Shown piece by piece: positions 5,248-24,000 of a DNA stretch of 24,000 nucleotides. This stretch comes from an uncultured Spirochaetales bacterium (GTDB taxonomy: Bacteria; Spirochaetota; Spirochaetia; CAZEKV01): NCBI GenBank assembly GCA_964512945.1, contig CAZEKV010000004.1, positions 13,172 through 37,171 of the forward strand, written 5' to 3'. Below the pieces are notes generated by a model that was not told where the DNA came from, searched no databases, and worked only from the letters and a program-made list of their open reading frames with translations. Each line of letters begins with the position of its first letter. Positions within the stretch are counted from its first letter, which is position 1. Position numbers and translations under genes: made by a program.

Positions 5248-5427
5248 ATGAAAAACAAAAAGAATGTTACAGGATGGTTACTGCTGCCGGCCGTACTGGT
5301 AGTATGTTTACATCAATTTCCTGGATTATCCCTGAAAGTTTTGATCCGCACATCCGACTGGAATGCCTGCAGGATACCATGGAGACTGGCAGGCCTTTTT
5401 TTTATAAAATACCAGGGTTTCCGGTGA
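5248..5427 (+). CDS. Doubtful small ORF (59 aa) with a signal-peptide-like N-terminus
   Basis: Not in the ORF track (under 60 aa). My own translation is MKNKKNVTGWLLLPAVLVVCLHQFPGLSLKVLIRTSDWNACRIPWRLAGLFFIKYQGFR. A strong SD AAGGAGGA (5237..5244) lies 4 nt before the ATG. The N-terminus is positively charged and followed by a hydrophobic run ending LVVC. Against it: the hairpin plus T-run at 5365..5403 lies inside the ORF, before its stop. Confidence 0.25.
   Translation: MKNKKNVTGWLLLPAVLVVCLHQFPGLSLKVLIRTSDWNACRIPWRLAGLFFIKYQGFR
5365..5403 (+). terminator. Candidate intrinsic terminator (plus-strand orientation)
   Basis: GCCTGC (5365..5370) pairs with GCAGGC (5389..5394), followed by C and T8 (5396..5403). 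The stem is only 6 bp with an 18-nt loop, so it is weak to moderate. The minus-strand reading has no U-tract. Confidence 0.4.
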
Positions 5428-5433
5428 GTAAAT

Positions 5434-7227
5434 TTACTTTTGTCTTTTAAGACTCAACTGAAAACGGCAGCCGCCCCTCCTGCGATTTTCAACCCTGATT
5501 GTGCCCTTATATTTCTGCATAATTCTATAGCTGAGGGGAAGCCCCAGTCCCATATTACGCCCTGTTGCGGCTTTTGTAGAAAAAAACGGTAAAAAAATCT
5601 CCTTCTGCTGATCTGCAGGGATTCCCGGACCTGTATCCTCAAACAGGATAATAACCAGGTCTTTTTCGGTTTTCAGGCATATACCAAGAGAGCCTCCGTC
5701 GGGCATAACCTCAAAGGCGTTATATGCAAGATTCAAAAAAACCTGTCTTAGCTCGTTTTTATCCGCTTTGACCTGGCAGGATTCCCCGGCTCTGGAAAAT
5801 TCTATCGTAATTCCCGATTCCTCTGCTTTAACTTTTAGCAGCCGGGTTAGGCTCTGGAGCAGATCTCCGGGATCGAAGATTGTAACCTCACTGGATGATC
5901 TATCCGAGAAAGCTATCAGGTTGCCGACAATTTTCGCTACTGATTCTATTTCTTCCTCGATTCCCCTGATAATATCCATTTGTTTTTCGTTAATGCCGGA
6001 GAATTTCAGATTTTCCAGACAGTAGCCCATGATATCGAGGGGATTGTTTATTTCGTGGGCCACTCCTGCAGATAAAAGCCCGAGAGAGGCCAGATTCTCC
6101 GACAGGGTAATTTTCTCTCTAAGTTTTTCCTGTTCTGTTATATCTGTCATAATTAAAATATTTCCGAGAAGGGTAGACCTTTCCGTTATGGGATAGATAG
6201 TCAGGTTGAACAAGAGGTTTTTCCCATTTTTTTTAAGGGGTATCTGGTAGTAGGTTTTGTATTTTCTGTTACTAAAGGATTTTTTAAGTATTTTTGAGAA
6301 TTTTTCATTTCCCGGGGGTATTAATTCTATAATCCGTTTATCCCCTATATTCGATCCAAGGATATTTTCTGCCGCTGTATTCTGCATTCGGATTTTTCCG
6401 CTGCCGTCCAGTATTACAAAACTAACCGGAAGATCCTTTATTACCGCTTCATTGTATTTGAGTATCTGACTGAATGTTTCTTTTGTCAGGACATCTCTTG
6501 TGTTAAGGCTGTGGGTATAGGCGAGCCGGATCAGGTTTGTTTTGTCAATGTGATCGACTTTTTCCGTGAGAAGAACCCTTCCTTCACGAATAATTGTAAT
6601 CCTGTGGGCTATGTTGTAGATATCATCCACCCTGTGGCTGATAAACATGACCCCCATTTCTCCGGCGGCAGTCCTTTTGTTAAGGATGTCCAGAAGCCGG
6701 CTCTGGTTTTCCGATGATAGTTTTTCAAGGGTTTCGTCCATTAATAAAAATCTGGGGTGGTGGTAAAGATGTCTCAGGATATCAACAAGAACCTTGTCTG
6801 ACAGTTTCAGATCCGACAGCAGGGTAGAGGGATCAAGATCGAAATCCATTTTTTCAATGTACTCACCGGCTGTCTGGAGGTTCTTCCTCCTCGTAATAAA
6901 GGGATAAAGTCCTGCTTTATTGTCAAGGAGAAGATTTTCGGCAACTGTCATATTCTCATAAAGGGGGTTGTTCTGTGCGACAATTCTGATTCCCAGAGCC
7001 ATGGCGGTTCCGGGGATGAGGGGTTCCATTAGTTTTCCCTTCCAGTAGAGTTCCCCTTTTAAGGGGCGCTGCATCCCCGCCACTATGTGGGCAAGTGTTG
7101 ATTTTCCCGCTCCATGCTCGCCTATGATAGCGTGGATTTCTCCTCTCTTAAACTCAAGGTTTATATTTTCCAGGGCGGTTACACTGTTGTATTGCTGGCA
7201 TATCCCACGGGTTCGCAGTAGTACCAT
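5434..7227 (-). CDS. Cytoplasmic sensor histidine kinase with an N-terminal ABC-type ATPase (NBD) domain: NBD-PAS-HisKA-HATPase_c
   Basis: 597 aa with no TM segment. NBD: Walker A GEHGAGKST (aa 36-44), Q-loop Q85, Walker B FLLMDE (aa 160-165), H-loop ISHR (H198), and a degenerate signature LKLSDKV. PAS-like region at aa ~250-365 (VILDGSGKIRMQNTAAENILG...IMTDITEQEKL). H-box GVAHEINNPL (His391 = codon 6057..6055). N-box LNLAYNAFE, G1 DTGPGI, G2 GLGLPL. The start ATG shares one base with the stop of the upstream regulator gene (TGATG). Confidence 0.85.
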   Translation of the reverse strand: MVLLRTRGICQQYNSVTALENINLEFKRGEIHAIIGEHGAGKSTLAHIVAGMQRPLKGELYWKGKLMEPLIPGTAMALGIRIVAQNNPLYENMTVAENLLLDNKAGLYPFITRRKNLQTAGEYIEKMDFDLDPSTLLSDLKLSDKVLVDILRHLYHHPRFLLMDETLEKLSSENQSRLLDILNKRTAAGEMGVMFISHRVDDIYNIAHRITIIREGRVLLTEKVDHIDKTNLIRLAYTHSLNTRDVLTKETFSQILKYNEAVIKDLPVSFVILDGSGKIRMQNTAAENILGSNIGDKRIIELIPPGNEKFSKILKKSFSNRKYKTYYQIPLKKNGKNLLFNLTIYPITERSTLLGNILIMTDITEQEKLREKITLSENLASLGLLSAGVAHEINNPLDIMGYCLENLKFSGINEKQMDIIRGIEEEIESVAKIVGNLIAFSDRSSSEVTIFDPGDLLQSLTRLLKVKAEESGITIEFSRAGESCQVKADKNELRQVFLNLAYNAFEVMPDGGSLGICLKTEKDLVIILFEDTGPGIPADQQKEIFLPFFSTKAATGRNMGLGLPLSYRIMQKYKGTIRVENRRRGGCRFQLSLKRQK

Positions 7228-8570
7228 CAGGTTATCCCGTACTTCTCAAGTTTGTTGTAGAGTGTTTTTCGGCTTATCTTAAGGAATTCTGCTGTTTTTT
7301 TCTTGTTAAAACGCCAGGTTTTCAGTGTTTCGCGGATCAATTTTTCTTCCATTTTGTCTCCTGGTTTTTTTTGGGGAGTTCCCTCTCCATGAACTGTTTT
7401 TTGCAGGAGATCCGGGGGTAAATCCTGGATGGTGATAGATTTACCGGTAGAGACCGCTTCCATATAATGAATAGCGTTTTTTAATTCCCTTATATTTCCC
7501 GGCCAGGTGTAGTTATTTATTATTTCCATTACTTCATTACTCAGGGATTTCTGAGGGGTGTTAAGGTTTTCCGAGATCTCTTTTAGAAAATAATCAATAA
7601 GGAGGGGGAGATCCCCCTTTCTTTCCCTTAAGGGAGGGATCCTGATTGTTGCGAGATTGAGTCTGTAAAACAAATCCTCCCGGAATTCTCCTTTTTTAAG
7701 CATTTCCTGGAGATTTTTATTAGTAGCTCCTATAAAACGAACATCAACTGTTATTGTTGATTCCCCCCCGAGTCTTCTTATTTCCTTGTTCTGAAGGGTC
7801 CTCAGTATTTTCGATTGAATTTCCAGGGGCATATCTCCTATCTCATCGAGGAAGAGGGTTGTTCCCCCGGCTCTCTCGAATATGCCCTTGAAATTCCTGT
7901 CTGCACCCGTATAGGCACCCTTCTCGTGGCCGAATAATTCATTATCAAGAAGATTTTCGGGAAGAGCGGCACAGTTTAGCTTGTAGAATTTTTTGTTGCT
8001 GCGTGAGGACTGTTTGTGAATAAAATCAGCTATCAGCTCTTTCCCCGTCCCGCTTTCTCCCGTAATCAGAATGGGGAAATCCCTTTCTGCAAGTTTTCTT
8101 AGCTTTTCAAGGATTCCGAGCAGCTCCCCGTTTTTTGTAATAAGCCTGTTTTTATTTTCCTGGAGAAGCTCCTTTAGTTTGGTATTCTCCTCTTTCAGGT
8201 GCTTATAGCTTCCTGCATTGATGACCCTTTGATATATTTTTGCAAAGTTTACGGGTTTCTGGATATAATCATAGGCTCCGAGTTTAAGTGCTTCAACTGC
8301 GTTTTCTACTGTCCCGTATCCTGTTACCATAATCACCGGAATGCTGCTGTAGTTTTTTCTGAGATATTTCAGAAGCTCCAGCCCGTTTTCTTCTCCGAGG
8401 CGGAGATCGAGAATAATTGTATCGGGAATGAATTTCTTCAGCTTTTTTTTTGTTTCAGCAGTATTGAGGGCGTATTCCGCTGCACATCCCATGTGCTCGA
8501 AGTCTTTCACAAGTATGCGGCAGAGTTTTTCTTTATCGTCAACCACAAGTATTTTCATAGGGCTATGCAT
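7227..8570 (-). CDS. Sigma-54-dependent response regulator (NtrC family: REC + AAA+ + Fis-type HTH)
   Basis: 447 aa. REC: KILVVDD...IILDLRL. AAA+: Walker A GESGTGKE, sigma-54 contact loop GAYTGA (a GAFTGA variant), Walker B LFLDEIGDM, RFIGATN and FREDLFYRLN. C-terminal HTH: KKKTAEFLKISRKTLYNKLEKYGI. The start could instead be the second Met at 8558 (MKILVVDD). Confidence 0.92.
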   Translation of the reverse strand: MHSPMKILVVDDKEKLCRILVKDFEHMGCAAEYALNTAETKKKLKKFIPDTIILDLRLGEENGLELLKYLRKNYSSIPVIMVTGYGTVENAVEALKLGAYDYIQKPVNFAKIYQRVINAGSYKHLKEENTKLKELLQENKNRLITKNGELLGILEKLRKLAERDFPILITGESGTGKELIADFIHKQSSRSNKKFYKLNCAALPENLLDNELFGHEKGAYTGADRNFKGIFERAGGTTLFLDEIGDMPLEIQSKILRTLQNKEIRRLGGESTITVDVRFIGATNKNLQEMLKKGEFREDLFYRLNLATIRIPPLRERKGDLPLLIDYFLKEISENLNTPQKSLSNEVMEIINNYTWPGNIRELKNAIHYMEAVSTGKSITIQDLPPDLLQKTVHGEGTPQKKPGDKMEEKLIRETLKTWRFNKKKTAEFLKISRKTLYNKLEKYGIT

Positions 8571-8589: not shown

Positions 8590-8614
8590 TACACACTGTG
8601 TAATTATTATACAC
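8590..8614. promoter_or_regulatory. Overlapping dyad repeats: candidate enhancer-binding-protein site / operator
   Basis: TACACA-C-TGTGTA is a perfect 6+6 palindrome at 8590..8602. TGTGTA-N7-TACAC forms a second dyad using 8597..8602 and 8610..8614. The element lies 96-120 bp upstream of the sigma-54 -24 element and overlaps the -10/start region of the divergent regulator promoter. Confidence 0.45.
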
Positions 8615-8709: not shown

Positions 8710-8725
8710 TGGCATGATTTTTGCA
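8710..8725 (+). promoter_or_regulatory. Sigma-54 (-24/-12) promoter of the CUT2 ABC operon
   Basis: TGGCATGATTTTTGCA matches the consensus TGGCACG-N4-TTGCW. GG is at 8711-8712 and GC at 8723-8724, which is the exact canonical spacing, with only one mismatch (C to T) in the fixed positions. It lies 72 nt upstream of the GTG start at 8797. A sigma-54-dependent activator is encoded divergently. Confidence 0.75.
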
Positions 8726-8796: not shown

Positions 8797-9930
8797 GTGA
8801 AACATTTTTTTACGATTTTGTTGGTATTTACTCTGTTTGTTGCAATCCTGCCCGGATGCGGGAGAGGGAGGGGAAATAATTCAGGAGAGGTATCCGTTCT
8901 TCCGGGTGATTCTCCAGAGACAACGGATGAGCAGCTGGCTCTGGCAACGGGTCCCAACGGTGAGACCGCAGTAAGGGCAAAGGAAGTCGTTCTTACAGAA
9001 GACCAGATTGCCAGTATAAAAACTAAGGGCTATACAGCTGCCATGCTATGGGCCGGTTCAGGAGAATGGTATAATGCAATGTCTGATGGAGCCTCTGCCA
9101 TGTTTAAGAAGCTTGGTATAAAGGTTCTTATTAATTCCGATGCCCAGTTCGATATGGCCAAACAGGCTACGGATGTTGAAACAAGTCTTTCTCTAAATCC
9201 GGATATCATTCTTACCCTTGTTGTCGATCCTGTATCCGGAGCCAGGGCCTTTCAGCCGGCAGTAGATGCGGGGGTAACCCTTGTTCTGGCAGACAATGGT
9301 GTTGACGGCTATACCGCAGGAAAGCAGTATTGTTCTGTAGTAACAGGGGATCACTTCGGTATGGGGCGTGCTGCTGCGGAGTTGATGAATGAGGCTATTA
9401 ATGGTTCGGGTGAGATTGGTTTTATCTTCCATGATGCGGATTTTTTTGTAACAAATAATCGGGATAATGAGTTTAAGCGTACTATCAAATCCAGATATTC
9501 AGGTATAAAAATAGTCGCAGAGGGAGGCTTTACCGATGAGGCTGGCACGGAAGAAATTGCCGCAGCGATGTTGACACGTAATCCGGGGATCAAGGGTATA
9601 TATGTTGCCTGGGATGTCGCCGCAGAGGGAGTAATTGCAGCGTTAAGGGCTGCAGGAAGGGAAGATGTAAAAGTCATTACACACGATCTTGGAGCTACAA
9701 ATGATCTTGATATGGCGATGGACGGGAATATGTACGGTAAGGTAGCGGATCTACCCTATGATCTTGGGATGTGTATGGCAAAGATCGCCGCTCTAAACCT
9801 TCTTGGTAAAAAGGTTCCCCCTTTTGTAGTTGTTCCTTCTGTTAAAATGACAAAAGAAAACATTGTTGAGGCATGGAAGGTTTCGTTAAGAAAAATGCCT
9901 CCTGAGAATATACTTAAGACATTAAAATAA
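8797..9930 (+). CDS. ABC transporter substrate-binding lipoprotein, periplasmic-binding-protein type I (ribose/sugar, RbsB-like)
   Basis: 377 aa. GTG start with SD AGGAGGAG. The N-terminus MKHFFTILLVFTLFVAILPGCGRG is a signal peptide plus lipobox Cys. The body has the alternating beta-alpha pattern and length of type-I sugar-binding proteins (VVDPVSG..., LVLADNG..., ITHDLG...). CUT2-type permease and ATPase genes follow. Confidence 0.8.
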   Translation: MKHFFTILLVFTLFVAILPGCGRGRGNNSGEVSVLPGDSPETTDEQLALATGPNGETAVRAKEVVLTEDQIASIKTKGYTAAMLWAGSGEWYNAMSDGASAMFKKLGIKVLINSDAQFDMAKQATDVETSLSLNPDIILTLVVDPVSGARAFQPAVDAGVTLVLADNGVDGYTAGKQYCSVVTGDHFGMGRAAAELMNEAINGSGEIGFIFHDADFFVTNNRDNEFKRTIKSRYSGIKIVAEGGFTDEAGTEEIAAAMLTRNPGIKGIYVAWDVAAEGVIAALRAAGREDVKVITHDLGATNDLDMAMDGNMYGKVADLPYDLGMCMAKIAALNLLGKKVPPFVVVPSVKMTKENIVEAWKVSLRKMPPENILKTLK

Positions 9931-9982: not shown

Positions 9983-10007
9983 AGGGTTTATCTCTGGAGG
10001 ATCCTTG

Positions 10008-10967
10008 ATGCAAAATAAATTGTCCGGGCTGCTGAAAAAGAACTACAGCCAGTATGTTGTCTATGTTAGTTTTTTCCTTATTTTGATATTTTTTTCCATA
10101 ACACTGTCGCCTGCGGTATTTTTGTCGCCTTTACAGCTCATGAATATCCTTAGACAAACGGCTATGGTTTCGATTATGGCCGTTGGCATGACTTTTGCGT
10201 TAACCGCCGGGGAGATTGATCTTTCCATAGGATCCCTCGTCGCCCTTTCTGCTCTGGTGACAGGGGTTGTACTGAACAGGTTTGACAGTATACCTCTTGC
10301 ACTTTTTGCGGGGCTTGGTACTGGAGTTACTGTGGGTTTTGTAAATGGGCTTATTACGACAAAAGCACGAATACCCGCTTTCCTGGTAACTCTTGGAACT
10401 GCGAGTATTCTAGGAGGTTTGGCTCGGTCCATCACAAATCTTGAATCTGTTCCCATCATAAATAAAAGTTTTAATTATATATTTGGTTCGGGGAATGTGG
10501 GGATTGTTTCAACCCTTTTTATCTGGACTATTCTAATAGCCTGTGCAGGTCACCTTCTCCTTAAGAACACACCCTTTGGCAGGGCGGTCCTGGCAACGGG
10601 AGGTAATAGAAGTGCTGCAAAATACTCCGGGATACGTACCGACCGTATCAGAATAGCTGTTTTAACAATCAGTGCTCTTTCGGCTTCCTTTGCGGGGGTT
10701 CTCTACGCCGGGCGCCTCCATGGTGCACGCTATACACTGGGAGGATCGGATCTTATGACGGTTATTGCAGCGGTTATAATAGGCGGTACAAGTTTTTCGG
10801 GGGGCATGGGTTCTGTTGTGGGTGCTATAATAGGCTCGCTGGTTATGGGGATGATGAACAGCGGTCTTCTCCTTATGGGGTTGAATGTTTCCCAGCAGAT
10901 GATAGCCCGCGGAATTATCATTATTGTTGCTGTTTCCTTGAGTCTCAGGGAAAAATCCGAGTCCTGA
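10008..10967 (+). CDS. ABC transporter permease, CUT2 family (RbsC/AraH-like)
   Basis: ~319 aa, highly hydrophobic. Family blocks are AVGMTFALTAGEIDLSIGS and ATGGNRSAAKYSGI. The ORF track starts at TTG 10005. ATG 10008 is preferred because SD GGAGG (9996..10000) sits 7 nt upstream of it. Confidence 0.9.
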   Translation: MQNKLSGLLKKNYSQYVVYVSFFLILIFFSITLSPAVFLSPLQLMNILRQTAMVSIMAVGMTFALTAGEIDLSIGSLVALSALVTGVVLNRFDSIPLALFAGLGTGVTVGFVNGLITTKARIPAFLVTLGTASILGGLARSITNLESVPIINKSFNYIFGSGNVGIVSTLFIWTILIACAGHLLLKNTPFGRAVLATGGNRSAAKYSGIRTDRIRIAVLTISALSASFAGVLYAGRLHGARYTLGGSDLMTVIAAVIIGGTSFSGGMGSVVGAIIGSLVMGMMNSGLLLMGLNVSQQMIARGIIIIVAVSLSLREKSES

Positions 10968-10979
10968 CGGGGAGGTGCC

Positions 10980-12161
10980 ATGTTTCTGGATGTATTGAAA
11001 AAAAGGAATCCCGATTTTATAAAAGCTGCGGTTGTTCTCCACCAGAACCGCCGGATCCCCTCAAACTGCTATCTTCTGGATCTTGATAGAATCAGGGAAA
11101 ATGCCAGGATTATCAAGGCAAATGCAGATAGATACAATATGAAAGTGTTCGCCATGAGCAAGCAGATCGGCAGAGAACCCTCGGCGATAAAGGCTCTTTT
11201 TGAGACAGGAATAGTTGACTATGTTACTGTTGATATTCAGGGAGCGAGGGCAGTTGTTTCCGCCGGAGGGGGGATAGGTCACGCCGGACATCTTGTTCAG
11301 ATTCCTGGGGGAGATATCCCCTGGATGATAGAGCATTCTCCTGAGTTCTGGACCGTTTTCAGTTATGAAGCCGCAAAAGAGATAAGTGAAAACCTTCCAC
11401 CGGGAAAAACCCAGAGGGTTCTTGCCCGGATTCAAGCCGAAGGGGATATCTTCTACCGTGGACATGAGGGGGGATTCCCCGCCGAAGAGATCCTGAAAAC
11501 CGCAGAAAGGCTTGCTTCTCTGCAGGGCATAGAGTTTGCAGGAATAACATCTTTTCCCTGTCTGCTTTTTGATAATGTCAAAAAAGATGTATATACAACT
11601 CCCAATCTTAAAACATTAGCCAGGGCTGCAGGGCTTCTGGAAAAAAATGGATGGAATAATCTTGAAATCAACACGCCTGGAACAACAAGTTCCCGGGTCT
11701 TATCCCTTTTTGCCGAGGCAGGTTCGACACAAATTGAACCCGGTCACGGTTTTACAGGAACAACCCCTCTTCATGCCGTAAGGGATCTTCCCGAAACTCC
11801 CGCAGTTCTTTATGTTTCGGAAATCTCTCATTTTCTGGGGGAAACCGCCTATTGCTACGGAGGGGGGCTTTATATAGATCCTGTTTTTCCTCCCTATGAT
11901 GTTCAATGTCTATGTCTGAGTGCTCCGGAAGAGATCCTCCAGAGACAGTTCCATATAGAACTTCCGGCAGATAATGCCATTGATTATTACGGGATGATCC
12001 GGTCTTCTTCTCCACGGCGGGGAGATACGGTAATAATGGGATTCAGACCCCAGGTCTTTGTTACAAGGTCGTATGTTGCAGGAATATCGGGGATAAGCAG
12101 GGGAAACCCCGTACTTGAGGGGATATCCTTTTCTGACGGAAGGAGGGTGGAATGGCCGTAA
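10980..12161 (+). CDS. PLP-dependent alanine-racemase-fold protein, YhfX-like putative amino-acid racemase
   Basis: 393 aa. SD GGGGAGG upstream. The N-terminal region MFLDVLKKRNPDFIKAAVVLHQNRRIPSNCYLLDLDRIRENARII, the candidate PLP Lys in VFAMSKQIGR and GHAGHLVQIP resemble, from my memory, the E. coli YhfX / alanine-racemase N-terminal TIM-barrel family. Family assignment was not verified by a search. Confidence 0.55.
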   Translation: MFLDVLKKRNPDFIKAAVVLHQNRRIPSNCYLLDLDRIRENARIIKANADRYNMKVFAMSKQIGREPSAIKALFETGIVDYVTVDIQGARAVVSAGGGIGHAGHLVQIPGGDIPWMIEHSPEFWTVFSYEAAKEISENLPPGKTQRVLARIQAEGDIFYRGHEGGFPAEEILKTAERLASLQGIEFAGITSFPCLLFDNVKKDVYTTPNLKTLARAAGLLEKNGWNNLEINTPGTTSSRVLSLFAEAGSTQIEPGHGFTGTTPLHAVRDLPETPAVLYVSEISHFLGETAYCYGGGLYIDPVFPPYDVQCLCLSAPEEILQRQFHIELPADNAIDYYGMIRSSSPRRGDTVIMGFRPQVFVTRSYVAGISGISRGNPVLEGISFSDGRRVEWP

Positions 12162-13669
12162 AGAATGGGTATCTTCTTGAGGCAAGGGGAATCCGGAAAA
12201 GTTTTTCCGGTGTGGAGGTTCTTCACGGTGTTGATTTTCTCCTTGAAAATGGGGAAATCCACGGTCTTGCGGGAGCCAATGGGGCGGGCAAGTCCACTTT
12301 AATGAAAATTCTTAACGGGGTTTATCATCTTGACGGGGGGCAAATTTATCTGAACGGGAAGATTATGGCGATAAAAACCCCCATAGAGGCCGCCGGAGCG
12401 GGTATTGCCATGGTCTTTCAGGAATTCAGCCTGATTTCGACAATGACGGTGGCCGAGAATATCTTTCTTGCACGTGAACCCCTGCATAGAATTCTCTTTA
12501 TAAACAAGGAAGAAATTCATGCGAGAACCCTCAAGGTATTGGAACGCCTTAAAGTGGATATCGATCCGGATGAAACCCTGGGGAATCTATCTGTTGGAAC
12601 CCGCCAGATAGTGGAAATTGCGAAAGCTCTCAGCAAGGACTGCCGGGTTTTGATCCTTGATGAACCGACAGCCTCGCTCAGTCAGAGTGAAATATTGATT
12701 TTTTTCAGGATTCTCGCAACCCTCAAAGAACAGGGAATTTCAATTATCATGATAACCCATCATCTCCAGGAGATTATGGATATCTGTGACAGGATTACTG
12801 TTTTAAGGGATGGTAATGTTACCCTGCGGGAGAAAATCGATTCCATTTGCCTGGAGGATGTTATAAAGGCTCTGGCGGGGCAGACGGTAAATCGGGAGGT
12901 ATTCTCCCGTGTTTATAAGTCCTATCAAGGGGGGACTCCCTGTCTTGAAGTAAAAGGTTTGAGGTATGCCTCTCTTCTTTCCGGCATCGATTTTTCTCTT
13001 TACAAGGGCGAGGTTCTTGGTTTTGCCGGATTGCTTGGAAGCGGGAGAACCGAAATTCTCAAGAATATCTATGGTCTTCTGCATCCATCAGGGGGCGAGA
13101 TTCTGATAAACACTAAAAATGTCAGGGTAAAGCATCCTGCCGATGCTCAGAAAGAGGGGGTCAACTTTGTTCCTGAGGACAGGCATAAGAACGGTATAAT
13201 CAGGGGGCAGTCCCTGATGAATAACATAATGCTTTCAGTCTGGAAGGAATATACCCATTTTTTATTTTTGCGTCTGGAAGAAGCCGCAAAGAAGGTCGGT
13301 GTTTTGATAAAACGCCTTAAAATAAAAACTCAGGGATGGAGTCAGCTTATTGAGCAGCTCTCTGGAGGGAACCAGCAAAAAGCGGTTATAGCCAGAGCAA
13401 TAGCGGCAAACACAAGGATCTTACTCCTTGATGAGCCCACCGTTGGGGTTGATATAGCCTCCAAGCAGGAGATTCTCAGTGCGGTGCGTCAGTTTGCCGA
13501 TGAAAACAAGGCCGTGATTATCGTATCCAGTGAGATGGAGGAACTTGCGCAGGTCTGTGACAGGGTTCTGGTTATAAAAGAGGGAAGAATAATAAAGGAG
13601 TTTAATCGCCGCGATGATGTTGAAATAACGGAGGATATTCTAATGGCTGCATCCCAGGGCCGGGTATAG
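12152..13669 (+). CDS. ABC transporter ATP-binding protein, CUT2 family, tandem NBDs (RbsA-like)
   Basis: 505 aa. NBD1: [41 protein letters not shown]2: the family-typical degenerate Walker [25 protein letters not shown] and [11 protein letters not shown]. The start overlaps the racemase-fold gene by 10 nt, and SD GGAGGG lies upstream. Confidence 0.92.
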
Positions 13670-13734: not shown

Positions 13735-15477
13735 ATGAAAGAGTATAATGGTATCTCTGCATCCCAGGGCATTGTCGCGGGAAAGGCCTTTCTGTACATC
13801 GAAGACAATATTAAGATCCCGGCCTATGAGATAAAAAGCAAAGAAATAAAACAGGAGCTGGATAGGTTTCTTAAGGCCGTAAGAAAGGCCGAGGAAGAGC
13901 TGGGAGAGCTGAAGAAACGGACTGTTGCTGAACTGGGAGAGCAAGAAGGGAGAATACTCGACGCTCATATTCTTATGCTGAATGATCCTGAATTTCAGGA
14001 TGAAATCAATAAAAACCTGATTACAAAAAAGAGAAATGTTGAATGGGTTCTGCTTGATGTAATAAATAATTTGATAGACAAAATGAAATTATCAGAGGAT
14101 ACCTATTTGAGAGAGCGTTCTCTTGATATCAAGGATATTTCCGTAAGAGTGCTTAACAATCTGCTCTACAGGAAGAGAAAGCTCCTTTCCGATATTACTG
14201 AAGAAGTAATTCTGGTTACGCATAATCTTTTACCATCGGATGCCCTGTTGATGAACAGGCGGATGGTTAAGGGAATCGCCATGGATGTCGGGGGCAGGAC
14301 ATCTCATACGGCGATCCTTGCTCAGTCGTTTGAGATTCCAGCGGTGCTGGGACTTTCGGATATTACAGCACATATCCGGGATGGTCAGGAAATAATAGTG
14401 GATGGTAATGCCGGTAAGGTTATTATTTCCCCCGATGCCCCCACAAAGAGAAAATATGAAAATAAATATCAGGAGTGGCAGAGGCGGGAGGTTCAGCTCC
14501 TATCTTTGAATGAGTTATCCGCTGAAACAAAAGACGGTAAGTTAATCAAACTAAAAGCCAATATAGAGGTTCCGGAAGAAGTTGATTCCGTAATGTCTCA
14601 TGGGGCTGACGGGATAGGGCTTTTTCGTTCGGAATTCCTTTTCTTGCAGTCGTCGAGGATATATTCCGAAGAACAGCAGTTTGAAGTTTATAAAAAAGTT
14701 TTAACCGATATGGATAAAAAAAGCGTGACAATTCGTACTCTTGATGTCGGCGGTGATAAAATTATTCCTGATTTTGAGAGTTTTAACGAGAAAAATCCTA
14801 TTCTGGGATGGCGGGCTGTTCGTTTTTGTTTATCAAAGGTTGAATTGTTTAAAAACCAGCTTAAAGCCCTGCTGAGAGCCTCTATCTACGGTGAGCTAAA
14901 AATCATGTTCCCGATGATTTCGGGAATTGAGGAGCTGAACGAGGTCTTTGCCATACTGGACGGGGTTAAGGATGAATTCGATAAAAAAGGGATAGAGTAC
15001 AAAAAAGATATTCCGGTTGGTATAATGATCGAAGTGCCCTCTGCGGCTCTAACCTCCGATATCCTTGCAAGAAAGGTTGATTTCTTTTCAATAGGAACAA
15101 ATGATCTGATCCAGTATACAATTGCCGTTGACAGGGGTAATGAAAAAATAGCCTACCTCTACGAACCCTTCCATCCTGGAGTTTTGAGGTTAATAAAATT
15201 GATAATTAATAATGCCCACGATGTTGGAATACCGGTGGGGATGTGCGGAGAAATGGCAGGTGATCCCCTTGCCACGGTAATACTCCTGGGATTCGGACTT
15301 GATGAATTTAGTATGAGTTCCTTCGGGATTCCTGAGATAAAAAAGATTGTCCGTTCGGTTTCAATAGCCGAGGCTGAGGAGCTGGTTGGCATGATTGAAG
15401 AGATGAAATCCTATAAAGAAATAGACCCCTTTATTACGAACTGGATGGAGAGCAGGTTTGACGTCATTGCTGGATAA
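13735..15477 (+). CDS. ptsI: Phosphoenolpyruvate-protein phosphotransferase (PTS Enzyme I)
   Basis: 580 aa. Active-site His block [19 protein letters not shown], plus [17 protein letters not shown] and the catalytic Cys block [10 protein letters not shown]. The N-terminus [14 protein letters not shown] is typical of EI. Confidence 0.95.
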
Positions 15478-16839: not shown

Positions 16840-18165
16840 ATGAAGATATATTTTTTGTTATTTTTCTTTTTTCCCTGTTTGTTTCTTTTTACGCAGCAGT
16901 ACTGCCCCGATCTTTACGATATAGAAAATAATCTACTACGGCGGGAATATAAGAAAAAAATAATTCAATCAACAGCAGATGTTCTCATGCTGCACTCAGG
17001 ATATTTAACCTCCGGGAGCGGAAGGAGAGTACATTTCGATATCCAGCGGAAAAAAGATTTCTATTTTATATTGTTTACAAACGAATTGAACAACTCCTTC
17101 CCTGTTTTCAGTGCCGGAAGCGTTATAATAAAGCGTAGTATTAAGGACGGCTCATTCCTCCAGATAAAAATGTTTATAAGAAATGATCCCGGCTGTTTTA
17201 TCAGGATTTTTCCTCTTTACAAAGATCTGATTGTGGGAAATGGAAGCAACAACTCAATATCAGAATTGCAAAGATCGAGTATGGATGTCTATTTATACGG
17301 AAAATTACTCTATGAGAATATTATTCTTCCATGTTCTTTCGATACGGCTCTAACAATCTCATTTTCAAAGATTGTTGAGATGACGGGAGACAGTGTTGAA
17401 TGGGAGCTGTTGCTGCCGGAAAAAAAGAAGAACAGTGAGAACCTTCTTACAAAGAAGATTGCCCAAAAAATCAGGGCAGAAATTCCCGGGTTAAGGGAAG
17501 CTGAAGACGGGGCAATAGATGAGGACGGCGAATATGTTTATATAGAAACACTGGAAAAACAATTCCGGGATGATTGTGGTCTTAATTGTTCGGGGTTTGC
17601 CAAATGGGTTGTTGACGGTCTGTTTTATCCCATTCATGGTAAATATATAGAAATTAGCAGATTGAAAGAAAAACATCCCGATCTGAGGGGGAGTGACTGG
17701 AGTGAGAGATACGAAGATCAAAGAGATCCCTATTTTGGGCTGGATTGGATCAGAAATTTGGGTTTTGTGATGAAAAATACGGATGCTCGCAGCTATCTCC
17801 AGGATAGAGATAAGATTGATGTATCAGGTGTTCCCTTTTTTAAATACACAACCAATGTTGGATATCCTGTCAGGGATCTAAAACTTCTGTTTTACTTTCT
17901 TGCCAGGATTGAGCCCGGTTATATTTATATAGGATCTGTTAACCGTGAAGTTGGGAAAAAGCCTATGCTCCGTCAGTATGTCCATGTTGTTGTTTTTTGT
18001 CCCTACATTGATGAAAATGATGAAATAGTAGTTGATGTTTTTGAGAGGTACACGGGGGTACTGGAAACGAATCTGGAATCACTTGAGAAGAGATTTCGAA
18101 ATGATTATATCCATCTTGTAAGAATCAGGGCAGAGGGCGACTTCTATCATAAAAACGATTTTTAG
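16840..18165 (+). CDS. Secreted hypothetical protein (441 aa); possible papain-fold Cys/His enzyme
   Basis: N-terminal hydrophobic signal-like segment MKIYFLLFFFFPCLFLFTQQ. I recognise no family. The motif GLNCSGFAKWVVDG (Cys250, codon 17587..17589) resembles the NlpC/P60 catalytic DCSGF block, and a later YVHVVVF (His382) followed by an acidic DENDE run could supply His and a third residue. The Cys-His spacing (~130 aa) is much longer than in canonical NlpC/P60. Confidence 0.6.
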   Translation: MKIYFLLFFFFPCLFLFTQQYCPDLYDIENNLLRREYKKKIIQSTADVLMLHSGYLTSGSGRRVHFDIQRKKDFYFILFTNELNNSFPVFSAGSVIIKRSIKDGSFLQIKMFIRNDPGCFIRIFPLYKDLIVGNGSNNSISELQRSSMDVYLYGKLLYENIILPCSFDTALTISFSKIVEMTGDSVEWELLLPEKKKNSENLLTKKIAQKIRAEIPGLREAEDGAIDEDGEYVYIETLEKQFRDDCGLNCSGFAKWVVDGLFYPIHGKYIEISRLKEKHPDLRGSDWSERYEDQRDPYFGLDWIRNLGFVMKNTDARSYLQDRDKIDVSGVPFFKYTTNVGYPVRDLKLLFYFLARIEPGYIYIGSVNREVGKKPMLRQYVHVVVFCPYIDENDEIVVDVFERYTGVLETNLESLEKRFRNDYIHLVRIRAEGDFYHKNDF

Positions 18166-18997: not shown

Positions 18998-19094
18998 GGA
19001 TTTATCGACTGGATACCGGTTATAGCAGCGGGATGCCGGCAGAATACCTAAATATCCCGGCATAAGATATATTAAAGTTTTGGGAGCGGGAACT

Positions 19095-22000
19095 ATGGAA
19101 TATTTTTATGTAACTCTTTTTAATATCGGGATTGTCCTGGTAATTTTGATGGTTTATCGTCAGATGGATCAGAACAACAGATCTTTAGAAAAAGTAAAGC
19201 GCTATACCGATAGAATGAAAGAGAAGTTAAGCGGTTTTGTTGATGAAAAAACCCTTGAGTTGAAGGATCTTTCTGTTGAAGTCGATGTACACCAGAAGGC
19301 TGCCAAAGAAATTCTAAAAAGAATTATTAAGGCAGAAGAAGACTTGAGCGGAAGATCCGATAAAATCGAGTCTATCAATAAACGAATAATCGAGTACGAT
19401 AGCTCCCTTGATGATCTGGTCAAGATGTCAATAAGGGTTGATACAAACCTGAAGCATTTGCAGGAGGAATCCGATTTTGTAGACAGGGTGGGCAGACAGA
19501 TAAAAGAGGCCTCATCTCAGATGCAGAGGATTGAACAGAAGATTCCTGGAATAAGCAAGGAATTTTCAAGACAGAATGGTGAGCAGCTGGTTAATATCAG
19601 AAAAGAAATAGTGAAGAATACCGAAAAACAGGTAGCTAGCATATCAGGACATGTCAATAAAGCAGAACAGATGGTCAAGGATTTTTTAAACCATATTGAA
19701 CGTCTTGAGGCGAGGAGAGATGAGGTTGAATCCGACACAATAAAATCCCTCAAGGATATTTCCGGCGGATTTATCAGGGATGCCGAAAAAGAAAAAATTA
19801 GTTTAAGCGAAAATTTTAGTGCCGAGCTTGATGATATATTTTCAAACAACCTTGAGAAGGTTAATGCTCTTAATGGAAAAGTTAAGGAGAATTATGAAAA
19901 ACTCAAGAGAGAAATCTCTGTAACGGGGAGTACAGTAACTGAAAAGGTAAAAGCTTTTCAATCTAATCTGAAAACCCTTGAAAGGGAATATCAAAATAAT
20001 ATCCAGGCTATTGCAGTCAGGGGAAAAAATTTAGAAGATGAAGTTTTTATTAACCTGAAAAACCACATCGTTTTTGCTTCCGAAAAAGTTAAAAACGAAA
20101 TGTCCGAAAATGTGGGAACGCTGAATGAAAGGATCGTCAAGATTCAGGAAAATGCTGATAAAAAGATGGAGAAAATAGAGAAGTCCATACAGGAATATGA
20201 AGAGAATCTCTTATATAAATTCACCAAGCTTGAAGATGTAAATGTTGATATTATAGAAATCGAGAAAAATCTCCATAATTCAATGGGGGGAATAACAGAG
20301 AGGATTCAGGAAGATCTGGATGAATTTTCAAAGGAAATTGAGGCTAAACAGACTAAGGAAAAGGAAAAAGTTGAGCTTGAAATGGCGAAAGTTCAGAAGA
20401 CCATGGAAACCCTTGAAAATGAACTTGTTCAGCTTAAAAAGCGTGCCTACGATAATGTTTCGGAAAAGCTGCAGGTATTTGAGGATGATTTCTTTTCAGA
20501 TATCAAGAAACGGGATGATAATATCCAGAAAACCATGGGTAAATGGGAAAAGAAGATTGAAAAGGATGTCCGGCTGGTGGCAGAGGAGAATTCTTCGGCA
20601 AGGGAAATAATGGAAAAGCATTATTCGGAAGAATTGAAGGACAGGCTGACGGAGCTTCAAAACAAGACCTATCAGCAGTACGACAAGTTTGAGGATCAGG
20701 TTCTTGGTTTTCAGGAGAGACTTAATCAGAGAATACTTCTTTCAGAGGGTTCGATCAAAAATCTAGAAGATAGTATAAAAAATGATATTGAAGAAGTTGA
20801 AAAAAATTCAAAGACTTTTTTTACAAAAGAGATCGAAAGCAGCAATAGAATTATAAATGATAAGATAAAGAAATTTGAAAAAGAAATTGAAGATCAATTA
20901 AAGACTTTCAAAAACAGTGTGGGTGAGTCCAGAAAGGATTTCATGGCTGTTATGGAAACCGCCCGGTCGGAGGCTACTGTCTGGCAGGCGAAAATTCTCC
21001 AGCAGATGAAAGTTGAAGAGGCGGATGTAAGCGATAAAATTACCAATCTAAAAACAGAGCTGTCGGCAACTATCGGAGAGATTCAGGAAGAATTTAAGGC
21101 TCAGAGGAATGTTCTTATAACCAATACCCGGAAGGAACGCAATGATCTAAAGAATGAGTTAGTAATGGTTTCCGGCAAGATTGATGATTTTGTAGATGAT
21201 TTCAAGCAGAAAACCATTGAAATTACTGATAGTTTTAACAAGGAAAGAGAAAAAAATGATTTTGAATTCCAGCAGAAAATAAGGGATTTTAGCCTGGAAA
21301 TTGAACAGCAGGTTAAGGATTTCCGTATTTCTACAAAGGATTTCAAGGAAAAAGTTGATTCAATGCAAAAGAAAATGTACGGCAAAATTGAGGAAAATTC
21401 AAAAATACTTACGGTAAATCTCCAGGAAATCGACAAAAAACAGAAAAGTTTTATTGAGCAGACCAAAATATTTGACAGGGCAGATGCCCTGAAGGTTAAC
21501 CTGCAGGAAGCCATAGAAGATTTAAAGCAGGAGATAGTGCGTGTTGATCATCAGGTAAAAGAATTTAAAGAGGCCGAGAGGAAATTCCTTAAAATCAGAA
21601 AAATGGGAGAAGAAGTATCAACGAAATTGACAGGCTTTCTATCTGAAAAAAGAAGGATTGAGGTCATGGAGGGAGATTTTAAGAAATTGATAAACATGTC
21701 CCAGGCTGTAGATGTTAAACTGGATCAGGTCACCGGAAGCTACGATTCCCTTCAAAAGATTCAGGCAAAGATCAGGGGGCTTGAGGAGCTTGAAAATGAG
21801 GTTCTTCAAAAATATGAAAGGCTTGAGAACAAACGGGATGTGGTTCAAACAGCCATTGACGGTGTGGAAAGTAATTTTCAAAATCTTGAAAAACTGGAAA
21901 AGCGTTTTTTTGCTATGAGTAAAGAAATTGAAAAGATTCCTGGAAAACTTAACGACACCGCTAAAAGAATTGACATTCTGACAAAGGATAGAAAAAAAGC

Positions 22001-22340
22001 GGATCAAGCAATCAAGCAAATCGAGAATATTGATATCCTGCTGGGAGAAATCGAACAGCGGATGAAAAAAATGCAGCAGGCCAGGGAATGGCTTGCAAGA
22101 ACCGAAACTCGTCTTGATGAGATTCAAAAACAGGCAAAAGAACAGGTTCAGCTGCTTGGATCCCTTCTTAAAGATAATGCCAGGACAGGGAAGAAGGAGA
22201 AGGGTGCTCCCCCTATGAGTGTCAGGGATATGGTTATACGCCTTGCCCATCAGGGATGGAAGGTAAAAGAAATAGCTCAAGCCACGAAACTTAGCAGGGG
22301 TGAGGTCGAATTGATTCTTGAATTGATTCCCAGGGCTTAA
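19095..22340 (+). CDS. Membrane-anchored giant coiled-coil protein with a C-terminal HTH-like domain (~1081 aa)
   Basis: The ORF track starts at TTG 19080. ATG 19095 is preferred because of GGGAGCGGGA upstream. N-terminal TM: MEYFYVTLFNIGIVLVILMVY. About 1000 aa are E/K/Q/L-rich and essentially free of Pro and Gly, i.e. coiled-coil character. The last 41 aa (22215..22337), MSVRDMVIRLAHQGWKVKEIAQATKLSRGEVELILELIPRA, look like a three-helix HTH of the kind found in sigma region-4 or small transposase-type HTH domains. Confidence 0.8.
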   Translation: MEYFYVTLFNIGIVLVILMVYRQMDQNNRSLEKVKRYTDRMKEKLSGFVDEKTLELKDLSVEVDVHQKAAKEILKRIIKAEEDLSGRSDKIESINKRIIEYDSSLDDLVKMSIRVDTNLKHLQEESDFVDRVGRQIKEASSQMQRIEQKIPGISKEFSRQNGEQLVNIRKEIVKNTEKQVASISGHVNKAEQMVKDFLNHIERLEARRDEVESDTIKSLKDISGGFIRDAEKEKISLSENFSAELDDIFSNNLEKVNALNGKVKENYEKLKREISVTGSTVTEKVKAFQSNLKTLEREYQNNIQAIAVRGKNLEDEVFINLKNHIVFASEKVKNEMSENVGTLNERIVKIQENADKKMEKIEKSIQEYEENLLYKFTKLEDVNVDIIEIEKNLHNSMGGITERIQEDLDEFSKEIEAKQTKEKEKVELEMAKVQKTMETLENELVQLKKRAYDNVSEKLQVFEDDFFSDIKKRDDNIQKTMGKWEKKIEKDVRLVAEENSSAREIMEKHYSEELKDRLTELQNKTYQQYDKFEDQVLGFQERLNQRILLSEGSIKNLEDSIKNDIEEVEKNSKTFFTKEIESSNRIINDKIKKFEKEIEDQLKTFKNSVGESRKDFMAVMETARSEATVWQAKILQQMKVEEADVSDKITNLKTELSATIGEIQEEFKAQRNVLITNTRKERNDLKNELVMVSGKIDDFVDDFKQKTIEITDSFNKEREKNDFEFQQKIRDFSLEIEQQVKDFRISTKDFKEKVDSMQKKMYGKIEENSKILTVNLQEIDKKQKSFIEQTKIFDRADALKVNLQEAIEDLKQEIVRVDHQVKEFKEAERKFLKIRKMGEEVSTKLTGFLSEKRRIEVMEGDFKKLINMSQAVDVKLDQVTGSYDSLQKIQAKIRGLEELENEVLQKYERLENKRDVVQTAIDGVESNFQNLEKLEKRFFAMSKEIEKIPGKLNDTAKRIDILTKDRKKADQAIKQIENIDILLGEIEQRMKKMQQAREWLARTETRLDEIQKQAKEQVQLLGSLLKDNARTGKKEKGAPPMSVRDMVIRLAHQGWKVKEIAQATKLSRGEVELILELIPRA

Positions 22341-22477: not shown

Positions 22478-24000
<1,523 letters not shown>

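Follow-up and report, generated by a model that had tools for sequence, protein, structure and literature searches.

The Locus

The DNA analysed here, referred to throughout as the window, is a stretch of 24,000 nucleotides from an uncultured Spirochaetales bacterium (contig CAZEKV010000004.1, positions 13,172 to 37,171). It carries a gene for a histidine kinase whose N-terminal domain is a nucleotide-binding domain (NBD) of the type found in the ATP-binding cassette (ABC) transporters of the CUT2 class. The kinase gene is paired with the gene of a sigma-54-dependent response regulator, and the pair is divergent from an operon encoding a CUT2 importer (Table 1). As set out below, the genomic evidence favours a coupling between this kinase and the transporter, in which the NBD may report the state of the permease.

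The TGA stop codon of the regulator gene overlaps the ATG of the kinase gene at position 7227. The regulator matches the AtoC (2.4e-123) and NtrC models of NCBIfam, and its REC, AAA+ and HTH_8 domains identify it as the sigma-54 activator partner proposed in an initial annotation of the window. The same annotation had described the transporter operon as sigma-54-driven, which is supported by the -24/-12 element at 8710..8725, the sole exact match to TGGCA-N7-TGCW in the window. Palindromes resembling the candidate activator-binding site at 8598..8614 were found by inspection at the equivalent place in three homologous loci (L011, L013 and L014). Within the operon, the end of the YhfX-like gene overlaps the start of the ATPase gene, an arrangement that is repeated in L014 (5166..6356), the closest homologous locus. 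With a YhfX-like enzyme encoded in the operon, the substrate may be an amino-sugar or amino-acid derivative and not a plain sugar.

Table 1. Features of the kinase gene and the adjoining transporter operon (positions are those of the window)
Feature	Position	Strand	Remarks
Kinase gene, NBD-PAS-HisKA-HATPase_c	5434..7227	(-)	Uninterrupted open reading frame, 597 residues, predicted soluble
HATPase_c catalytic domain and stop codon	5434..5907	(-)	Residues 441-597
DHp/HisKA domain	5908..6141	(-)	Residues 363-440; H-box GVAHEINNPL, phospho-acceptor His391 (nt 6055..6057)
PAS domain with conserved N-cap helix	6142..6483	(-)	Residues 249-362; family motif F-x-x-LLKYNEAIL-x-x-LP
NBD-PAS tether	6484..6516	(-)	Residues 238-248; variable, low-confidence; aligns with NBD1-NBD2 linker of CUT2 ATPase
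ABC NBD, CUT2 NBD1 type	6517..7227	(-)	Residues 1-237
Former ABC signature position, LKLSDKVLVDIL	6775..6810	(-)	Residues 140-151; family-specific motif in its place
Cognate response regulator, REC, sigma-54 AAA+ activator and HTH_8 (AtoC/NtrC-like)	7227..8570	(-)	Pfam, NCBIfam
Candidate activator-binding palindrome, GTGTA-N7-TACAC	8598..8614		About 100 bp upstream of -24 element; read by eye
Sigma-54 -24/-12 promoter element, TGGCATGATTTTTGCA	8710..8725	(+)	71 nt before start codon of binding-protein gene
Substrate-binding protein (Peripla_BP_4)	8797..9930	(+)	Lipoprotein-like N-terminal signal (…LPGC)
CUT2 permease (BPD_transp_2)	10005..10967	(+)	Only permease gene of the window
YhfX-like enzyme of pyridoxal phosphate (PLP) fold (Ala_racemase_N and YhfX-like_C)	10980..12161	(+)	Between permease and ATPase
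CUT2 ATPase, fused NBD1-NBD2	12152..13669	(+)	

Domain Organisation of the Kinase

The four domains that the initial annotation had read in a single open reading frame are recovered by Pfam, by NCBIfam and in an AlphaFold2 model. In Pfam, ABC_tran matches residues 19-166 (E 2.3e-19; 70.8 bits against a cut-off of 25), within the region of residues 1-235 that had been assigned to the NBD. It is followed by PAS_9 (267-365), HisKA (383-443; 30.3 bits, cut-off 26.9) and HATPase_c (489-596; E 5.7e-20). The NCBIfam matches divide the chain in two. Residues 3-249 match the N-terminal half of each CUT2 sugar-transporter ATPase model, among them YtfR (E 5.6e-46), LsrA, AraG, GguA, XylG, AlsA, MglA and RbsA; the ten top NBD matches are all CUT2 and fall at model positions ~1-260 of ~500. 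Residues 253-596 match AtoS (E 7.5e-61), and ZraS as well. All these scores lie far under the equivalog cut-offs, at 157 versus 850 bits for YtfR and 206 versus 646 bits for AtoS.

The NBD has an A-loop tyrosine (Y13), a Walker A motif (GEHGAGKST, residues 36-44, nt 7096..7122, with K42), a Q-loop glutamine (Q85), a Walker B motif (LLMDE, residues 161-165, with D164-E165; nt 6733..6750) and an H-loop histidine (H198). The ABC signature is eroded to LKLSDKVLVDIL and DEPT is changed to DETL. In the kinase part, the N box (NLAYNAFE, 499-506), the G1 box (DTGPGI, 531-536) and the G2 box (GLGL, 560-563) accompany the H-box. Every peptide block quoted in the initial annotation was found as written, its numbering of K42, Q85, D164/E165, H198 and H391 is right, and its account of retained Walker A, Q-loop, Walker B and H-loop motifs beside an altered signature and DEPT holds.

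The protein had also been said to lack a hydrophobic segment. Its highest Kyte-Doolittle value over 19 residues is 1.35, compared with 2.34 for the permease; no transmembrane segment is therefore expected, and the kinase is predicted to be soluble. Neither the Pfam scan nor the AlphaFold2 model contains a periplasmic domain. Pfam gave no SSF/SLC5 or STAC match, ABC_tran being the N-terminal domain, and profile scans found no NBD2 in the chain, which has a single NBD and then the PAS and kinase domains.

The AlphaFold2 model was built from an alignment of 91 homologues and has a mean per-residue confidence (pLDDT) of 79. It has no membrane helix and shows a complete NBD fold over residues 1-237, at pLDDT 82-94 save for the loop at residues 104-108. 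The tether, the PAS N-cap helix (249-264), the PAS core, two DHp helices and the catalytic domain follow in that order. Foldseek places the NBD close to LptB (4qc2; TM-score 0.86, normalised to the target), and YF1 and ThkA are PDB chains matching the PAS-kinase part; no PDB chain in the fold search covers both the NBD and that part.

A Family of NBD-Fused Kinases

A full-length search of 5.8 billion proteins listed 120 matches, all of them with ABC_tran, HisKA and HATPase_c, and most with a scored PAS domain too. All but two are 594-640 residues long; query coverage is at least 92% (nearly all 97-100%) and identity 38-55%. When a profile of the junction (residues 196-392) was searched against 1.84 billion clusters at 50% identity, 210 representatives were obtained at E≤1e-30. 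Among the best 150 of these, 89 are proteins of ~600 residues that match at residues ~200-400, the remaining ones being fragments or giant multi-PAS proteins. The single-frame architecture with the same junction occurs in >100 independent clusters, drawn from NCBI, JGI, ENA and Logan; CP070696.1 and CP036150.1, two of the sources, are complete genomes.

Clustering at 50% leaves no fewer than 89 full-length representatives of the family, most of them from Spirochaetota. Named sources are Spirochaetaceae, Sphaerochaetaceae, Oceanispirochaeta crateris (Spirochaetota) and one Spartobacteria metagenome-assembled genome, and one member comes from a termite-gut metagenome. The H-box pattern AGVAHEIN is common to AtoS-type kinases too, and a scan of metagenome contigs with the family alignment listed mostly generic PAS kinases, L025 and L026 being the only family members among the matches. 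A scan of genome contigs with the single kinase returned, among the matches listed, only distant generic kinases and ATPases.

Five shorter representatives (P0128, P0129, P0147, P0166 and P0174; 364-448 residues) start with Met and keep the junction, PAS and kinase, but 140-190 residues are missing from the beginning of the NBD. They may be gene-call truncations at contig ends or true variants that lack most of the NBD.

Relation of the Kinase NBD to Transporter ATPases

The initial annotation had aligned the kinase NBD with the N-terminal half of the neighbouring CUT2 ATPase. BLASTP agrees, aligning residues 3-257 of the kinase with residues 8-256 of the ATPase, in NBD1, at 32% identity (E 7e-35); NBD2 of the same ATPase is matched at 20% identity (E 2e-9). 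Since the former alignment extends into the NBD1-NBD2 linker, the PAS-kinase module looks as though it had been swapped in for NBD2 at this point.

When the kinase NBDs of six loci were compared with CUT2 NBD1s and NBD2s, they proved to be 34-56% identical among themselves, 25-34% to any NBD1 and 15-24% to any NBD2. The NBD of the window's kinase is 31% identical to NBD1 of the neighbouring ATPase and 26-30% to NBD1s of other genomes. The relationship that had been called paralogous therefore stands at the level of the subfamily, and not as a copy specific to the neighbour. As the kinase NBDs are closer to one another than to transporter NBD1s, the fusion is an old one and not a recent copy of the adjacent gene, and these NBDs form a separate lineage of NBD1 type.

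The neighbouring ATPase is itself asymmetric. Its NBD1 has a canonical ATP pocket with an already degenerate signature (LSVGTRQ), and its NBD2 has a canonical signature (LSGGNQQK) with a degenerate Walker A (GSGRT), Q-loop (E) and H-loop. The kinase took over the pattern of NBD1, and the erosion of its signature goes a step beyond an ancestor that was already asymmetric.

Conservation of the Nucleotide Pocket and of the Signalling Module

Across 118 close homologues, conservation is complete or at least 98% at the Walker A residues G36, G41 and K42 and at Q85, D164, E165 and H198; the A-loop aromatic residue is Tyr in 81%. The signature position holds a family-specific motif with the consensus LKLSDRVLVDIL, and DEPT is replaced by DE[A/T]L. 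Across 89 representatives of the broad family, H391 is present in all 89, D164 in 87, K42 in 86, E165 in 81, H198 in 73 and Q85 in 64; an LSGGQ signature was found in none of the 89.

Ten NBD1s of neighbouring transporters share 47 positions at a conservation of 90% or more (46 without the initiator Met). In the kinases, 25 of these are the same, including every nucleotide-pocket motif, 6 are changed and again conserved, and 16 are relaxed. The changed or relaxed positions include the signature Gln, the P and T of DEPT and the neighbours of the D-loop, on the NBD-NBD face; the Q-loop and the T/S-V-A-E-N segment that follows it are kept.

A few divergent members have a destroyed P-loop (for example NRQHDEIG and GEDLEEET) and keep the whole NBD. 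P0235 and P0203, which are of this kind, keep the regulator as well, and in L022, a member without a P-loop, the binding-protein neighbour is also retained. The domain thus persists even where the capacity to bind ATP must be gone, and its retention points to a structural or docking role beyond the binding of nucleotide.

Pairwise comparison of the modules across eight loci gave mean identities of 42.6% for the kinase NBD, 39.4% for the transporter ATPase, 35.6% for the permease and 30% for the PAS core, which is the least conserved folded part of the kinase. Between loci the binding proteins differ widely, at about 18-30% identity; most pairs in these eight loci fall at 22-30% (mean 28%), compared with 38-53% for the kinases and 43-60% for the regulators. 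Kinase and regulator are conserved while the binding proteins diverge, which suggests that one signalling module serves transporters of varied specificity, and the divergent binding proteins probably bind different ligands. In a mirror-tree comparison, the Spearman correlation with the NBD was 0.43 for the permease, 0.53 for the ATPase and 0.25 for the binding protein; these are weak values from 28 non-independent pairs, dominated by the window and L014.

Genomic Context of the Family

The initial annotation had asked whether such kinases co-occur with CUT2 transporters. Thirteen loci were sampled, 11 of them with enough sequence (L024 and L026 being too short on the relevant side). CUT2 components adjoin the kinase gene in 11 loci: the window, L011, L013, L014, L016, L017, L019, L020, L025, L022 and the P0257 contig. 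No locus among the 13 contradicts this adjacency. In eight homologues (L011, L013, L014, L016, L017, L019, L020 and L025), the regulator-kinase pair lies beside genes for a CUT2 binding protein, a double ATPase and a permease, which are divergent from the pair or downstream of it; in L022 and the P0257 contig a Peripla_BP_4 gene is visible before the contig ends.

A sigma-54 regulator with REC, AAA+ and HTH_8 domains is encoded directly upstream of the kinase in 12 of the 12 loci with an annotatable upstream gene, the corresponding gene of the P0257 contig being without a Pfam record. In each of 10 loci out of 10, a -24/-12 element (up to 2 mismatches) lies ahead of the transporter side; the background frequency of such elements is 0.34 per kb and strand.

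Two loci have an extra BPD_transp_2 permease gene, convergent with and right behind the kinase gene (L011, 11888..12850, (-); L013, 11790..12857, (-)). The extra permease of L013 is 70% identical to the one in its operon; that of L011 is 62% identical to the permease of the window and 50% to that of its own operon. The extra permease could serve as a further subunit of the transporter or as a partner dedicated to the kinase. As a general dedicated partner it was rejected, for no such gene is present in the window, L014, L016, L019, L020 or L025.

L026 (2701..8137, (-)) contains a divergent member of 27% identity, in which Walker A reads GEHRAGKS and the signature region (LTQAQQLMVEFA) is nearer to that of CUT2 NBD1. 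Its gene is convergent with those of a peptide transporter of Opp/Dpp type, in which OppD and OppF are fused into one ATPase; the side on which a CUT2 operon would be expected is lost at the contig end. The idea that the type of NBD follows the class of the neighbouring transporter was not supported, as the NBD of L026 is still of CUT2 type beside an Opp-type system.

Other Genes in the Window

Directly after the transporter ATPase gene lies a gene for PtsI, Enzyme I of the phosphotransferase system (13735..15477, (+)), whose end is overlapped by der/engA. This adjacency is absent in L014, and a tie of PtsI to the sigma-54 circuit is uncertain. At the other side, an open reading frame of 59 codons (5248..5427, (+)) is convergent with the kinase gene and approaches its 3' end; AAGGAGG forms a strong ribosome-binding site for it, and the N-terminus it encodes is hydrophobic (MKNKKNVTGWLLLPAVLVVCLHQ…). 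Further away, a 441-residue open reading frame downstream of der (16840..18165, (+)) has no Pfam match at E≤0.01, and one of 1086 residues (19080..22340, (+)) has weak matches of coiled-coil type and a C-terminal region resembling DUF6115/DUF2802. A 206-residue open reading frame (23242..23862, (-)) matches PF10712, 'NAD-GH' (E 4.8e-33), and sits opposite the expected start of dnaK, just past grpE (22478..23203, (+)). We take PF10712 to be a family of spurious reading frames antisense to dnaK, and the stretch is probably no gene.

A Kinase That May Read the Transporter

How might such a kinase be controlled? We propose that the two-component system would switch on the adjacent CUT2 sugar-type operon through the sigma-54 regulator and the -24/-12 promoter at 8710, and that the input of the kinase would be an old, diverged copy of NBD1 in place of a membrane or periplasmic sensor. 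Dimerising through DHp, the kinase would present two NBD1-like domains, which may dock as a pair on the coupling helices of the permease dimer, replacing or competing with the motor ATPase. A ligand-loaded binding protein on the permease, or the turnover of the transporter, would then alter the spacing of the NBDs or their ATP-dependent closure, and this change would be relayed through the tether and PAS to DHp and the catalytic domain, shifting the balance of kinase and phosphatase activity. The specificity for the ligand would come from the binding protein and not from the kinase. As a whole, this docking of the NBD on the permease, by which it would report the state of the latter, is the best explanation we can offer, with a probability of roughly 0.5. 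The architecture, the conservation of the family, the surroundings of the gene and the promoters are observed; docking, the direction of signalling and the behaviour towards nucleotide are parts of it that we infer.

The NBD probably binds ATP, because the binding residues are all invariant in the core clade. Its hydrolysis of ATP is probably poor, as a homodimer would lack a signature motif at both half-sites. The genomic evidence favours transporter coupling over pure nucleotide sensing because of the constant CUT2 adjacency, the divergent binding proteins and the retention of the domain after loss of the P-loop. A conserved module with varied binding proteins is what would be expected if the binding protein reads the ligand and relays it through a conserved transporter surface. 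The ordinary partner of an NBD is the coupling helix of a permease. As there is one permease gene in the window, the permease is presumably a homodimer with two identical helices, matching the two NBDs of a kinase dimer. The conservation of the NBD, its usual partner, the permease homodimer and a layout like that of MalK would all, by analogy, speak for docking, and the location of the changed positions on the NBD-NBD face, with the nucleotide pocket unchanged, was counted in its favour, as was the conserved Q-loop with the segment that follows it.

Several points weigh against docking and conformational signalling. The contact between kinase and permease is one that we infer. The linker between NBD and PAS is short, variable and modelled at pLDDT <50 in AlphaFold2, so that a conformational route is doubtful and the kinase may in fact work by recruitment or sequestration. 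Glu165 and His198, catalytic residues that are invariant in the core clade, fit poorly with a purely non-hydrolytic docking module, and at +5 from the Q-loop Gln the hydrophobic residue shows no more than moderate conservation (F/Y 53%, V 19%, N 14%). The variable PAS core could itself be a ligand sensor. The neighbourhood statistics come from 13 loci and are not a genome-wide census, and the divergent kinase of L026 adjoins an Opp-type transporter, its upstream side being lost at the contig end.

A further-reaching version of the docking proposal, which we put forward more tentatively, is that the kinase replaces the motor ATPase on some permease dimers and so makes up, with permease and binding protein, a genuine receptor that spans the membrane. 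The ABC permease would carry the occupancy of the ligand outside across the membrane, and the soluble kinase would read it by way of a non-hydrolysing NBD plug; competition of the motor ATPase for the same permease site would provide feedback. If this were true, the family would represent an adaptor of general use, with which any CUT2 importer could be made into a receptor.

Small molecules are common ligands of PAS domains, and an alternative that we consider unlikely is that PAS senses a cytoplasmic ligand, either the imported sugar or a metabolite, the NBD acting as an ATP-dependent dimerisation clamp or gain control that makes no contact with the transporter. The variability of the PAS core would be expected if its pockets tracked ligands, and a flexible tether speaks against rigid mechanical coupling from the NBD. 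However, PAS-core identity does not track binding-protein identity (Spearman 0.11, a weak test), and induction by an internal substrate needs prior uptake. The choice of a CUT2 NBD1 as input, its retention in at least 89 clusters at 50% identity and its persistence after P-loop loss are also left unexplained.

Could the NBD instead be a sensor of cytoplasmic ATP/ADP, licensing an ATP-consuming importer only when energy is available? Such a sensor would confer no substrate specificity on operons whose binding proteins differ widely, and the exclusive linkage to CUT2, and not to any ABC importer, would be unexplained. That members whose P-loop is destroyed retain both the domain and its genomic surroundings is again difficult to reconcile with this role. 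Thus, although the core clade shows little or no variation at the A-loop Tyr (81%), the Walker A Lys, Gln85, Asp164-Glu165 and His198, and the slow hydrolysis predicted from the absent signature would fit a binding sensor, we regard it as quite improbable.

The kinase NBD has a full catalytic set without a signature, and NBD2 of the motor ATPase has a canonical signature with degenerate Walker A, Q-loop and H-loop. It is therefore conceivable that the two pair, for example the Walker A site of the kinase with the NBD2 signature, allowing ATPase turnover to be sensed. This is very unlikely. CUT2 NBD1 and NBD2, fused in one chain, already form a pseudo-dimer, so that the NBD2 signature is occupied, and the dimer face of the kinase NBD (signature and D-loop region) has diverged from that of NBD1. 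Lastly, an assembly or frameshift artefact joining an ABC ATPase gene to a kinase gene, which the initial annotation had wished to see excluded, has next to no probability, as an identical architecture and a conserved junction recur in >100 independent full-length homologues of ~600 residues, including those of the two complete genomes.

Comparison with Known Systems

The NBD-fused kinase would belong to transporter-coupled two-component sensing, and none of the systems compared here uses an ABC ATPase domain as input. In Bce modules, a kinase without a sensor domain of its own needs an adjacent ABC transporter; it is the activity of the transporter that is sensed and the transporter that is induced (PMC6978683). 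Like BceS/BceR with BceAB in Firmicutes, the present system has no extracytoplasmic sensor and has ABC transporter genes alongside. BceS, however, is a membrane kinase contacting a separate permease, BceB, whereas the kinase here is soluble and carries its NBD copy covalently. BceAB is moreover an exporter-like resistance pump, in contrast to the binding-protein-dependent CUT2 importer and sigma-54 activator of these loci.

In the Pst/Pho system, the ATPase subunit PstB joins PhoU and PhoR in a signalling complex (PMC6978683). Information from an ABC importer reaches a kinase without a periplasmic sensor in PstSCAB-PhoU-PhoR, as it would in the system described here. In the former, a genuine motor NBD signals through the adaptor PhoU; here a signature-less NBD paralogue is fused upstream of PAS, and, unlike PhoU in Pho, no conserved adaptor gene is found in the kinase loci compared.

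The fusion of a transporter-derived domain to a PAS/HisKA/HATPase_c kinase is known from the SLC5-STAC kinases CbrA, CrbS and RpuS (PMC7096432, PMC5715377, PMC9100948). Their fused part is the membrane domain of a secondary carrier, whereas here a primary ABC transporter is the source, and the part taken from it is its ATPase domain, which is soluble. The PAS-HisKA-HATPase_c core and the sigma-54 activator output are shared with AtoS/AtoC, ZraS/ZraR and NtrB/NtrC, but an ABC NBD is absent from all of these, and AtoS and ZraS are anchored in the membrane and have periplasmic parts. With the CUT2 ATPases RbsA, AraG, MglA, XylG, YtfR and LsrA the kinase NBD shares the full set of Walker A, Q-loop, Walker B and H-loop; it differs from them in lacking an NBD2, in its altered signature and DEPT, and in forming a separate clade.

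A similar layout is that of MalK, MetN and GlcV, in which an N-terminal NBD is likewise followed by a C-terminal dimerising or regulatory module, the chains aligning over 385-410 model columns. In MalK (MalK-MalT and EIIAGlc), as proposed here, the C-terminal module ties the state of transport to gene regulation. MalK, however, is a working motor that sequesters a separate activator; in the present family the NBD has no signature and a histidine kinase forms the C-terminal module. The initial annotation knew of no characterised kinase of this kind, and in agreement with it our search of the full-text literature, which covered few subscription journals and is to that extent provisional, yielded no description of a kinase with an ABC ATPase input domain.

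Significance

The question of how a kinase learns from a transporter what is being carried is an old one, and Bce, Pst/PhoU/PhoR and DctA/DcuS have served to study it. To our knowledge, all partners in these systems are separate proteins, and their contact is hard to map. In the present family, the likely contact element, an NBD that would clamp the coupling helices of a permease, is fused to the kinase; the interface would thus be predictable and mutable, and open to the standard tools of ABC transporter research.

If docking proves true, it would constitute a modular route from importers to receptors and a natural case of a pseudo-ATPase NBD reused for signalling, offering a portable design for synthetic sugar sensors. 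Members of the family are at present named 'ATP-binding cassette domain-containing protein' or 'PAS domain S-box-containing protein' in the databases. A demonstrated role in reading the transporter would give them a better name, and would add a new class of input domain to censuses of histidine kinases.

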